Positions 9,770-12,162 of a stretch of DNA of 64,000 nucleotides are shown here, one piece after another; positions within the stretch are counted from its first letter, which is position 1; every line of letters begins with the position of its first letter. Where the stretch lies: NCBI GenBank assembly GCA_046485045.1, contig JAWOHT010000028.1, positions 3,195 through 67,194 of the forward strand, in the 5' to 3' direction. Below the pieces are notes generated by a model. That model had not been told where the DNA came from and ran no database searches. It was given only the letters and a program-made list of their open reading frames with translations. A program made the translations under genes and the position numbers. This DNA comes from Bacteroidales bacterium (lineage in GTDB: Bacteria > Bacteroidota > Bacteroidia > Bacteroidales > UBA10428).

Positions 9770-10528
9770 CTATTTACCACAAATAATAATAAACTCTTTT
9801 GAGTTCCGGTTAAGATCACTCTTACCATAATCACCATATATTTTCAAAAGCTTTAACTTTGATAATCTTATCAAATGCTCCAGTTCATACCTGAAATAAA
9901 AACGCATTTTAAAATTCCACGATTCGTCGTTCCATTGGTCATTCTCCTGCCATTCAAAACGCATGGTAATATCAAGCAACTGGTTTACAAGATCGGGTAC
10001 CGTGTTTGATATCCTCCTGAGCTTTTTATCTGGTTCGTACTCACCTTCAAAATCAACAAGATTGTTAACCCCCTTATGCAGCAGTTCAGGATCGGGGACA
10101 AACAGGTCGAAAATAAATGTTCCTCCGTCGTGTAAATGATCCCAAACATTATTCAAAAACTTTAGTTGATCTTTTACTTCGGTAATATGCGAAAAAACCC
10201 TGAAAGGAGCGATGATAAGGTCAAATTTCCTGTTTAGTTTCATAAAACAGGCATTGCCAATGGTTATCCTTGAATGGTGTTCGGCAGCGAGTTTTTTCTT
10301 CAACACTTCAACCATTCCCTTGCTGATGTCAATACCGTATATATCTGCACCTTGCTGAAGGGCTGTGGTAAAAAACCTGCCGGTGCCAACACCTATTTCA
10401 AGTACCGGCCCCCTTGTTTCATTGATGACATTCAGAAAAAATGCAGAATCAACATGATCTCTGATTGAATGATAGATCACATCGTAAAAGCGTGCAAAAA
10501 TTTCAGGATATTCAAATTTTTCGGCCAT
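9770..10528 (-). CDS. class I SAM-dependent methyltransferase
   Basis: VLEIGVGTGR motif I, GIDIS and L..GGTFIFD. Confidence 0.9.
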   Translation of the reverse strand: MAEKFEYPEIFARFYDVIYHSIRDHVDSAFFLNVINETRGPVLEIGVGTGRFFTTALQQGADIYGIDISKGMVEVLKKKLAAEHHSRITIGNACFMKLNRKFDLIIAPFRVFSHITEVKDQLKFLNNVWDHLHDGGTFIFDLFVPDPELLHKGVNNLVDFEGEYEPDKKLRRISNTVPDLVNQLLDITMRFEWQENDQWNDESWNFKMRFYFRYELEHLIRLSKLKLLKIYGDYGKSDLNRNSKEFIIICGK

Positions 10529-10661
10529 GAACTCTGATTTTTAATTGTTTATTTTTTATTTTGTTACGAAATATTGATCCGATATACCGGAATATCTCTT
10601 CCGGGAACAGACGATGGGGAATTGTAAAGAAATTCGGTCTGGTGTTCAATTTTTACATGAG

Positions 10662-11027
10662 TTATTCCTGTTTCAGATCTTTCTTCACCACGGCAAAGTA
10701 GTCGTTATCTATTGCAAGGTATCCCTGTTCATAGCAAAAATAGTATGTATTGCCATTTTTTGTTATATAGATGTTGGTAAAAAAATCAAACCTGAAACCA
10801 AGTTTAGCCAGATGGCTCCGATGTACTTTTGACTTGCCGTTTGGGTTCAGGTCGGTGAGTATTCTTCTGTTTTTCTTAAGTATGTTGTTTACTTTTTTAA
10901 TGTAATTATCCGTGTAGGTTCTCCACTGGTTGTTATAAAAATTCCGGCAATAGTCAGTACAAAACTTTTTATCTGTTCTTCCGGTAAGCTTTTCTCCGCA
11001 ATTCAGACATTTTCTTTCAGGCTCCAT
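10662..11027 (-). CDS. small basic C4 zinc-finger protein (CxxC...GRxDKKFC...CR), putative DNA-binding regulator
   Basis: CLNCGEKLTGRTDKKFCTDYCRNFYNN, ILKKNRRIL and Y.FCYE.GY. Conserved Bacteroidota hypothetical family. Confidence 0.8.
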   Translation of the reverse strand: MEPERKCLNCGEKLTGRTDKKFCTDYCRNFYNNQWRTYTDNYIKKVNNILKKNRRILTDLNPNGKSKVHRSHLAKLGFRFDFFTNIYITKNGNTYYFCYEQGYLAIDNDYFAVVKKDLKQE

Positions 11028-11050
11028 ATTCTATTGTTTTATTGTATTAT

Positions 11051-11109
11051 AAACGCGTACTGTCGTTTATAACCGACTAATTTCCGACAGTAAATGATTA
11101 TCAACCGAT
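11051..11109. repeat. helically phased array of six (A/T)nn(C/T)G motifs in the zinc-finger/ssb divergent intergenic region
   Basis: AAACGC, TGTCGT, AACCGA, TTCCGA, AAATGA and AACCGA, with the CG/TG at 11054, 11064, 11074, 11085, 11095 and 11106 (spacings 10, 10, 11, 10, 11). Confidence 0.6.
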
Positions 11110-11195
11110 TAACTGAATTGATTGTAAGTTACTTTGTATCGTCAACATTTACAAATTGTTTTAGAAAAAATTATTAACCATTTAAATTTATAATT

Positions 11196-11540
11196 ATGAA
11201 TAACTTAAGAAACAGAGTGCAACTCATTGGCAACCTCGGTATGAACCCCGAAGTAAAAAATCTCGAAAGTGGAAAAAAAGTAGCTAAATTTTCGATTGCA
11301 ACCACCGAAACCTATAAAGGCTCAGACGGGAAAAAGGTAAGCGAAACCCAGTGGCACAATATCGTTGCATGGGGCGGCCTTGCAGACATCGCGGAAAAAT
11401 ATCTTCAAAAAGGCAGCGAAGTGGCAGTAGAAGGAAAACTTACCCACAGAACCTATGATGACAAGAGTGGTAACAAGAAGTTCTTTACCGAAATTGTTTT
11501 GAACGATATTTTAATGCTAAGGAGCGGGAACAGCAATTAA
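11196..11540 (+). CDS. ssb: single-stranded DNA-binding protein, short form without the acidic C-terminal tail
   Basis: N.VQLIGNLG..PE, FSIAT, TQWH.IVAWG and YL.KG.EV.VEGKL OB-fold motifs. Ends at ..LRSGNSN (114 aa). Confidence 0.93.
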   Translation: MNNLRNRVQLIGNLGMNPEVKNLESGKKVAKFSIATTETYKGSDGKKVSETQWHNIVAWGGLADIAEKYLQKGSEVAVEGKLTHRTYDDKSGNKKFFTEIVLNDILMLRSGNSN

Positions 11541-11579
11541 ACACTATTGGCTCTTATATTCACGCTTAATGATTCTCTT

Positions 11580-11615
11580 CAACCCTTCAGGTTTTTACAA
11601 TCTGAGGGGTTGTTT
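11580..11615 (+). terminator. probable intrinsic terminator between convergent ssb and the Cys-rich gene
   Basis: CAACCCTTCAG...CTGAGGGGTTG stem followed by TTTAT. Confidence 0.55.
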
Positions 11616-11670
11616 ATATTACCATTTCTATCTTTAAGCGGCAAATTCCTGCAGCAGACAAAGAATTTTT

Positions 11671-12162
11671 TCAGAATCCATTTCGTAACCTGATATGCCT
11701 GATTATAGTCCCTGATTCAACAAATGCCCCATTGTTGCATCCGGTTACATTACAAAAAGTTATTGAATTATTGAAATCAAGCGCGGGGGTAAGGCCTATC
11801 ACCACCATATCTGAATCGGGCTGGCAACCACAGTTTACCAGTTTTTCAAACGCTGCTCCGCAGTGAGGGCAAAAAAGATCGTCTTTTACACCGTCTTTCA
11901 AATCGCCCGAGAGTACAATTTTTTCGAAATCGCCTTCAATGGCAGAAATAATAAACTCCCCTTCCATTCCCGGCCTTTTAAATTGAATACGTAATCCAGG
12001 ATAACCGTTTATCGGGTATTCGTTGTCAATAATACTGCATCCACTCGGGCAATATGCACTGGTTACTACATATTTAACCTTATCTTCCTTTTTTTCTGCT
12101 TTAACCTTTTCACGTTGGGTCAACGGAATAAGCAACCGCCCGTTCTTTGAATATTTGCTCAT
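11671..12162 (-). CDS. Cys-rich hypothetical protein, putative metal-binding
   Basis: YCPSGC, FCPHCG, NCGC and FCNVTGC clusters in 163 aa. Confidence 0.75.
   Translation of the reverse strand: MSKYSKNGRLLIPLTQREKVKAEKKEDKVKYVVTSAYCPSGCSIIDNEYPINGYPGLRIQFKRPGMEGEFIISAIEGDFEKIVLSGDLKDGVKDDLFCPHCGAAFEKLVNCGCQPDSDMVVIGLTPALDFNNSITFCNVTGCNNGAFVESGTIIRHIRLRNGF

Follow-up and report, generated by a model that had tools for sequence, protein, structure and literature searches.

What does a helically phased repeat array do between a zinc-ribbon gene and a shortened gene for a single-stranded DNA-binding protein (SSB), and which protein reads it? The question is raised by a locus in a 64,000-nucleotide stretch of DNA, here called the window, from contig JAWOHT010000028.1 of a Bacteroidales bacterium (assembly GCA_046485045.1). 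In the window, the gene for a 121-aa zinc-ribbon protein, termed ZnF (an open reading frame (ORF) at 10662-11027, minus strand), is divergent from a tail-less ssb paralog encoding 114 aa (11196-11540, plus strand), and the 168-bp intergenic gap between them (11028-11195) holds an array of six helically phased repeats (11051-11112, plus strand). A sequence-only reading had described the two genes, the gap array, the missing SSB tail and a terminator, and had proposed that the ZnF protein controls itself, ssb and possibly a wider DNA-repair or recombination regulon; all five features were found in place. Judging from comparative sequence analysis, we consider it on balance probable that the array is bound by the ssb-linked branch of a new family of DNA-binding zinc-ribbon proteins, and that the accessory ssb is under the control of this branch.

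Conservation of the gene pair, the array and the ssb promoter

The ZnF-ssb pair and its array are conserved across many environmental Bacteroidota of the class Bacteroidia. A one-genome-per-species scan returned at least 601 matching stretches, 588 of which encode a relative, and about 7,400 are estimated for the whole collection. Synteny was counted in the best 80 of these at least 601 loci, with 3 kb of flank per locus. A divergent short ssb was present upstream of the ZnF gene in 47 of the 80 loci; the gap between the two genes measured 150-221 bp in 24 of these, while 1.0-2.7 kb separated them in the other 23. In a Flavobacterium locus (L038), the intervening gene encodes a GNAT plus CN-hydrolase (nitrilase) protein and its stop codon overlaps the ZnF start, so that ZnF is the second gene of an operon that is still divergent from ssb across the array. 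Of the 47 loci with ssb, the array profile matched 44 at E≤1e-4 and three less well (E 3e-4, 0.012 and 0.052); of the 33 loci without ssb it matched a single one, located at a contig edge. The array was always positioned immediately upstream of ssb. With these counts, the proposed synteny of the ZnF gene and ssb, and the conservation of the array, hold. Regulators and their targets are over-represented among gene pairs with a conserved divergent layout.

The array was delineated from its repeats, from alignments of 25 gaps and of 46 arrays (alignment A2), and from profile matches; the match of model R1 at G000:C18:14245-14306 corresponds to window positions 11051-11112 (E 1.6e-9). Its unit has the family consensus CGnTTACAAA. 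In the window the CG (once TG) recurs at 11054, 11064, 11074, 11085, 11095 and 11106, i.e. in steps of 10-11 bp or about one helix turn, and the array terminates in AACCGATTAA (11103-11112). When anchored on the TTTG of the -7 box, the 25 short gaps aligned gap-free and displayed 5-6 units with a 10-bp period, the last of which reads AACCGAATAA. Downstream of the array, about 25 bp of variable sequence are followed by [T/C]AnCTTTG and then by a conserved CATCGTCAA; the conserved promoter columns of these gaps read CTTTGc.t.gTcaA, and the distance from AACCGA to the -7 TTTG is exactly 30 bp in 19 of the 25; the last repeat of the window keeps this exact 30-bp distance to its -7 box. In a crude phase count for ZnF-positive genomes, at least three CG dinucleotides in six positions 10 bp apart were found upstream of 52 of 88 short ssb genes and in 56 of 1,880 shuffles. 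Since AAACGTTT, at the junction of two units, is a palindrome, the array matches on both strands.

Bacteroidota promoters have the consensus TAnnTTTG at -7 and TTG at -33. The putative core promoter of ssb in the window (11129-11145, plus strand) comprises TTACTTTG, which resembles a -7 box with its TTTG at 11133-11136, and the conserved TATCGTCAA near the expected transcription start. Taking the -7/-33 consensus as reference, the array spans from about -90 to about -30/-33; it thus covers the -33 position, where a TTG is not conserved. On the other side, TAnnTTTG is absent between the array and the ZnF ATG (23 bp in the window), and no promoter of the ZnF gene was found. Where the genes adjoin, the ZnF start codon lies 15-95 bp from the array, so the ZnF promoter would overlap the array or lie beyond it, which would entail autoregulation in this adjacent layout.

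Each unit carries an AAA tract at a period of 10-11 bp, a classic source of intrinsic curvature. The array could thus be read as a curved, UP-like element that strengthens the ssb promoter by way of its phased A-tracts and needs no protein of its own, a role that would also suit the missing TTG at the expected -33 place and would make the ZnF gene a mere neighbour. We regard this as improbable. The near-invariant CG, TTAC and terminal AACCGA are conserved across orders and are not needed for bending, the array vanishes in ZnF-less genomes that keep both ssb and the -7 box, and the whole array occurs at no promoter of its own genome other than those of the short ssb genes.

Two further elements were observed in the ssb leader. 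Just past the -7 box, at the position corresponding to window 11137-11176, a 5' hairpin was seen among 24 gaps, with arms that co-vary (GTCAA/TTGAC, GTCGA/TCGAC, CCAA/TTGG); its mean z was -1.56, with z<-1 in 13 of the 24 gaps, and it is absent in the window (z +0.88) and falls outside our main claim. A TTAACCATTTAAATTT-like block directly precedes the ssb start codon (window 11174-11189) and recurs at the short ssb copy on contig C269 of the same genome and in several distant relatives; a role in translation initiation or in autoregulation may be considered. Downstream of ssb there is an intrinsic-terminator-like hairpin (11580-11622, plus strand), with a 14-pair stem (11580-11612) containing 6 GC pairs and followed by TTTATATT, also given as TTTATATTAC. 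No Rfam family matched at E≤1 in 10400-11800. Convergent with ssb lies an ORF for a Cys-rich protein of 163 aa (11671-12162, minus strand), with weak Pfam matches of the zinc-ribbon type and no NCBIfam family.

Genes marked by the array

The window SSB is a clear family member by its single OB domain (PF00436, E 5.8e-33, 113.5 bits against a cut-off of 26; TIGR00621, E 1.5e-36, 126.2 bits against a cut-off of 53.95). A canonical bacterial SSB has a disordered linker and an acidic C-terminal tip of the D-D-[DI]-[IL]-P-F type. The window SSB is not canonical in this sense, as it stops right past the OB domain at residue 114 (...MLRSGNSN) and has no acidic tip. Its genome encodes two more SSBs, namely a short copy on C269 (62% identical) and a copy on C14 with a long tail ending in ...GTDDLPF. 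The window SSB is 55% identical to this tailed copy and represents a recent offshoot of the Bacteroidota SSB. Two array-linked short SSBs at other loci (L015 and L049) keep a brief tail that ends in LPF; tail loss is therefore not universal in the short-ssb lineage.

To locate further copies of the array, the 4.59-Mb genome of the window was scanned with an independent profile, built from 22 other loci and excluding both the window and its near twin L007. This profile matched the gap in the window (E 1.5e-5) and the region upstream of the short ssb on C269 (E 6.1e-5), which has deoC and not a ZnF gene as its neighbour; no other match had E<1. Among 20 further array matches in other genomes, the 13 with the lowest E values all lie upstream of a short ssb, three of them at tandem ssb pairs, while the remaining 7 are partial arrays or were missed by the profile on re-scanning. 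Because the extra strong sites all precede a short ssb, the regulon would in most genomes be limited to the accessory ssb, in one or more copies. The suggestion of a wider repair or recombination regulon thus found no support (13 of 13 strong extra sites being upstream of a short ssb), and the statement that the array would not act as an SOS box in general was borne out by its restriction to the two short-ssb promoters of its own genome.

The same sequence-only reading had started from the absence of a canonical LexA in many Bacteroidota. A premise that the phylum has no SOS regulator is outdated according to PMC8565304, in which non-canonical LexA boxes of Bacteroidetes are described as the palindromes GGA-N5-TCC and CTAA-N5-TTAG, bound by a repressor of the S24 peptidase family, and in which ssb is among the predicted SOS-regulated genes of several Bacteroidetes species. 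There are no CTAA-N5-TTAG sites in the 64-kb window, and GGA-N5-TCC was not seen in the 168-bp gap by eye, no program scan for this box having been made. The array differs from both boxes in sequence and architecture. We rejected membership of the window ssb in this SOS regulon.

In a few genomes, array sequences were also observed in other surroundings. Dispersed composite repeats hold the array in G213 (32 matches at about 18 sites; L112-L121) and in G260 (16 matches; L122-L126), and in G279 the promoter-proximal end of the array alone lies inside such a repeat (two sites; L141 and L142). The G213 repeat consists of CGTTTATAAA units with outward-facing motifs resembling the -7 box on both sides, at the usual distance of about 30 bp, followed by GC-rich hairpins. 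Its copies adjoin unrelated genes: the L112 copy lies directly upstream of a comM/yifB-like gene, and recA is about 800 bp from the L114 copy. These repeats could be mobile units that carry a promoter and operator, or else genes for a family of small RNAs. A comM-like gene is also found 3' of ssb in L099, as it is after one array copy in L112. A candidate on contig C80 of G278 (L110:1440-1640) was discarded as an array, since it is a different dense repeat of the TACAACCGTA / TACGGTTGTA type with no adjoining ssb; it might serve a different regulator as its operator.

The zinc-ribbon family and its integrase-linked members

The ZnF protein carries the motif C7-x2-C10-x12-C23-x3-C27, including GRTDKKFC, and is basic (pI 9.43; 23 K+R against 13 D+E). 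The N-terminal CxxC-x12-CxxxC ribbon occupies residues ~5-27, residues 25-60 make up a long basic helix, and residues 66-115 form a small alpha/beta domain. The AlphaFold model (pLDDT 89.4) displays the same three parts. A word-indexed search returned 113 homologues at E≤1e-3; wherever a source is named it is one of the Bacteroidota, and the annotations read 'hypothetical', 'DUF2116 Zn-ribbon' or 'predicted nucleic acid-binding Zn ribbon'. In an alignment of 25 homologues, C7, C10, G16, R17, D19, K20, C23, C27, R28 and N53 are invariant, and three parts are conserved: the ribbon GRxDKKFC..CR, the basic helix NNILRKNRRIL and the C-terminal GFxFxYFTNIY.TK.GNTYYFCYEQGY. We found no published description of this family or of the array in the literature searched.

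Assignment to the families DUF2116, YacG and NrdR was tried and rejected. The match to DUF2116 (PF09889) reached 17.3 bits against a gathering threshold of 26.8 and covers residues 2-35 only, and a precomputed PF09889 match exists for 10 of the 113 homologues. YacG (NF002362) scored 16.3 bits against 79 (NCBIfam E 0.0058), again over ribbon residues only, and neither the ATP-cone nor the NrdR family was matched at E≤1 in Pfam and NCBIfam. At the structural level, Foldseek searches of PDB and BFVD with the ZnF model yielded nothing at E≤0.001. The ribbon resembles the YacG structure 4tma_I weakly (VIA Z 3.8), and winged-helix chains are numerous in the VIA top 50 for residues ~47-118, where Z values of 3.3-4.2 make them a lead at most. 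Matches in PHROGs are limited to the ribbon. Three matches to longer, fused forms look chimeric or disrupted from sequence and are uninformative.

Some members of the family are paired with a different type of gene. A second ZnF gene of the window's own genome (on C227; L002:1426-3315), 40% identical to the first, is divergent from a gene for a 445-aa tyrosine recombinase (Phage_integrase, E 6e-42). The same arrangement was seen in all six paralogs inspected, i.e. this one, those of G107, G143 and G131, and two copies on plasmids of the Cytophagales Chondrinema and Pontibacter; the loci beyond C227 are L089, L104, L091, L131 and L133. Each of the paralog-integrase gaps contains an inverted repeat, whose arms measure 13-15 nt in three cases; several of the repeats have a CG with flanking A/T at their centre. 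The inverted repeat in the C227 gap (L002:1846-1877) has 13-nt arms and a AAACGTTT-like core. Such an arrangement is usual for a small regulator or a DNA-architectural protein, and in this the paralogs resemble local regulators.

These paralogs lend themselves to a reading in which the whole family consists of architectural or recombination-accessory, excisionase-like proteins, and in which the array is an iteron-like relic or working site of recombination or replication. Lambda Xis-type proteins do bind head-to-tail direct repeats, the integrase partners occur on chromosomes as well as on the two Cytophagales plasmids, and the dispersed repeats of G213, G260 and G279 have spread the array. 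For the ssb-linked branch we nevertheless think this quite unlikely, as the 30-bp register that array and ssb -7 box maintain in different orders speaks for a function in transcription; furthermore, integrase and replication genes are absent beside the inspected ssb-type loci, and a search of 50,697 phage records revealed no ZnF homologue.

Co-occurrence, mechanism and relation to known systems

The distribution of the ZnF gene and the array was compared in two samples. The phylum sample comprised 151 genomes including the window's own, with ZnF called at E≤1e-5 and the array at E≤0.01. It contained the ZnF gene in 28 genomes (27 of the own class), the array in 27 and both in 24. ZnF alone was recorded in G059, G087, G143 and G104 (in the last only its N-terminus), and the array alone in G101 and G129, both weak matches, and in G149, where the match is false because it lies inside a 401-aa ORF. 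The class sample, likewise of 151 genomes and with the array called at E≤1e-3 (G233 was used in tallies only), contained the ZnF gene in 93, the array in 58 and both in 55; its three array-only genomes are G278, which has the different repeat mentioned above, G173, with a weak match, and G270. As the ZnF gene and the array are often adjacent, it is in part trivial that they are lost together. Greater weight therefore falls on the 18 genomes from both samples in which the array+ssb unit and the ZnF gene are unlinked, being separated by more than 0.9 Mb or placed on two contigs (G107, G115, G131, G067, G283, G252, G226, G180, G255, G251, G218, G178, G174, G158, G275, G238, G282 and G184).

Genomes that lack ZnF and retain a short ssb are also informative. 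Five were found, in which the array is absent (G214 and G079), decayed (G043), largely decayed (G171) or intact (G270), and the -7 box persists in G043, G171 and G214. In addition, the sequence of the array appears to follow that of the protein. Eighteen of the array-negative ZnF genomes of the class sample were read upstream of ssb, along with ZnF-negative G171 and G214; most of the 18 show phased CG, and ZnF and ssb are adjacent in 8 of them. Most of the 18 have altered unit sequences but retain the phased CG, a terminal ACCGA-like unit and the 30-bp register (e.g. G245, G168, G153, G162, G201 and G215), with a CG every 10 bp in G059, G139, G245 and G168, while G087 and G167 have TTGAAACG or CGTTTCAAAA units and ZnF proteins that are about 36% identical to that of the window. 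It looks as if the ZnF protein and its site have been drifting together.

A separate observation concerns G247, where a short-ssb remnant with an internal stop adjoins the ZnF gene (G247:C224:36647-36916) and the same contig holds an intact array+ssb unit at a distance of 15 kb. It looks as if the regulated gene is in the course of relocating.

Several observations weigh against ZnF being the protein that reads the array. None of five inspected unlinked genes for ssb-type ZnF proteins is preceded by an array, which goes with ssb instead; autoregulation in every case thus found no support. G270 has two intact array+ssb units and only a weak, ribbon-only ZnF match (E 0.0016) in an assembly of 410 contigs that is 98% complete. 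No array was detected at E≤1e-3 in 38 of the 93 ZnF genomes of the class sample, and G172 has a 93-bp gap with no array at all. A recognised DNA-binding fold was not found for ZnF: Foldseek on PDB was empty at E<0.1, the VIA structural matches are weak (best Z 4.2) and within noise, a PDB sequence profile search gave syntaxin alone (E 0.5), and an Atlas search returned merely unnamed or DUF2116-labelled clusters. A short ssb is present in 72 of the 93 ZnF-positive and 3 of the 58 ZnF-negative genomes of the class sample (matches starting at model position ≤3 with E≤1.2e-43, read by hand). As the short ssb is nearly confined to ZnF genomes, joint action of the two proteins would predict much of the co-occurrence equally well. 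Moreover, relatedness makes the genomes non-independent, and the counts are given here without a P-value.

Some of these points would fit a ZnF that is a protein-level partner of the tail-less SSB, i.e. an adaptor that replaces the lost tip or a helper in single-stranded DNA (ssDNA) handling, recombination or DNA uptake, with another factor reading the array. The two genes would then co-occur even when unlinked, as they do, the array would always accompany ssb and never an unlinked ZnF gene, and G270 could keep its arrays without a detectable full ZnF gene; the weak likeness of the ribbon to YacG, a protein-binding gyrase inhibitor, would also fit. Against this explanation, the array is lost or decayed in four of the five ZnF-less genomes with a short ssb. 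No other conserved regulator gene was found beside the array, the unlinked array+ssb units included. The paralogs pair with integrases and palindromes and not with SSBs, and divergent genes around a shared control region fit a regulator and its target, subunits of one complex usually being co-directional. Taken together, we consider a protein partnership unlikely, though less so than the curvature and recombination explanations.

We return to ZnF as the probable regulator of the accessory ssb. Several copies of the protein would line the same face of the helix next to one another, each on one of the six CG-centred repeats with their 10-bp phase, and this binding would set the expression of the tail-less ssb together with any additional copies that a genome may have. 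In the adjacent layout it would also act on the divergent ZnF transcript, starting inside or beyond the array. As to the sign of the effect, we lean slightly towards repression rather than activation, because the array covers the -33 position and the short ssb has stayed intact in ZnF-less genomes; activation, at a promoter devoid of a -33 element, is a real alternative. DNA binding, its cooperativity and the sign of regulation are the points at which we infer beyond the observed anatomy, conservation, promoter register, restriction to ssb, co-occurrence (unlinked cases included) and loss of the array where ZnF is missing.

A more far-reaching version can be formulated, which we consider possible but rather doubtful. 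ZnF proteins would then constitute a new bacterial DNA-binding class that forms a short filament on CG sites spaced once per turn, and in Bacteroidia one branch would serve as a LexA-independent switch dedicated to the accessory ssb. The integrase-linked branches would be control or directionality factors, and in a few genomes the operator-promoter module would have been copied on a small repeat, rewiring many genes. Signals for such a filament switch might be the ssDNA load, free SSB, the redox state or zinc, the latter two sensed via the Cys4 site.

Regulation in Bacteroidota is poorly mapped, given their unusual promoters and few characterised regulators, and a conserved operator with a strong candidate binder offers a testable transcription-factor family. 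The array also flags the tail-less SSB as a specially controlled protein, whose role could be in DNA uptake, repair, replication stress or defence, and the integrase-paired paralogs suggest that the same fold controls recombinases of mobile elements.

The closest known system by function is NrdR. As described in PMC12051234, NrdR is a zinc-ribbon repressor of DNA-metabolism genes, namely those for ribonucleotide reductase, and acts at palindromic boxes with an integer helix-turn spacing. ZnF shares with it the small size and the N-terminal zinc ribbon (through which NrdR reads DNA, according to PMC12051234), and would also share helix-turn-spaced sites and a DNA-metabolism target. It differs in lacking the ATP-cone and having another C-terminal domain, in its candidate sites, six 10-bp units as compared to the two 16-bp boxes of NrdR, and in its putative target, an ssb paralog. 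The DUF2116 and YacG families have a similar CxxC...CxxxC ribbon, as reflected in the weak profile matches to ZnF residues 2-36, but their members are about 60 aa long, without the long basic helix and the C-terminal domain of ZnF.

On the side of the target, the accessory SSBs of the SsbB type in Firmicutes are competence-induced and short or tail-less. Like the window SSB, they are a second, short SSB beside a tailed housekeeping SSB and have a dedicated, promoter-proximal control element. Any link of the window SSB to competence, by comparison, comes down to two weak hints, the comM-like genes in L099 and L112, and some of the array-linked orthologues (L015 and L049) retain a short LPF tail. 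On the side of the operator, regulators of the OmpR/PhoB type and Xis-type proteins occupy tandem sites of about 10-11 bp on a single face of the DNA, where they adjoin the -35 element or stand in for it. Their winged-helix type of domain prevails among the weak structural matches to ZnF residues ~47-118, at a Z of no more than 4.2 and within noise; the ZnF model has no clear recognition helix, and a receiver domain is lacking. A local regulator with a phased operator is thus of a known type, and what we rate as new here, on the sequence comparisons made, is the apparently uncharacterised DNA-binding family together with its unusual six-unit operator.

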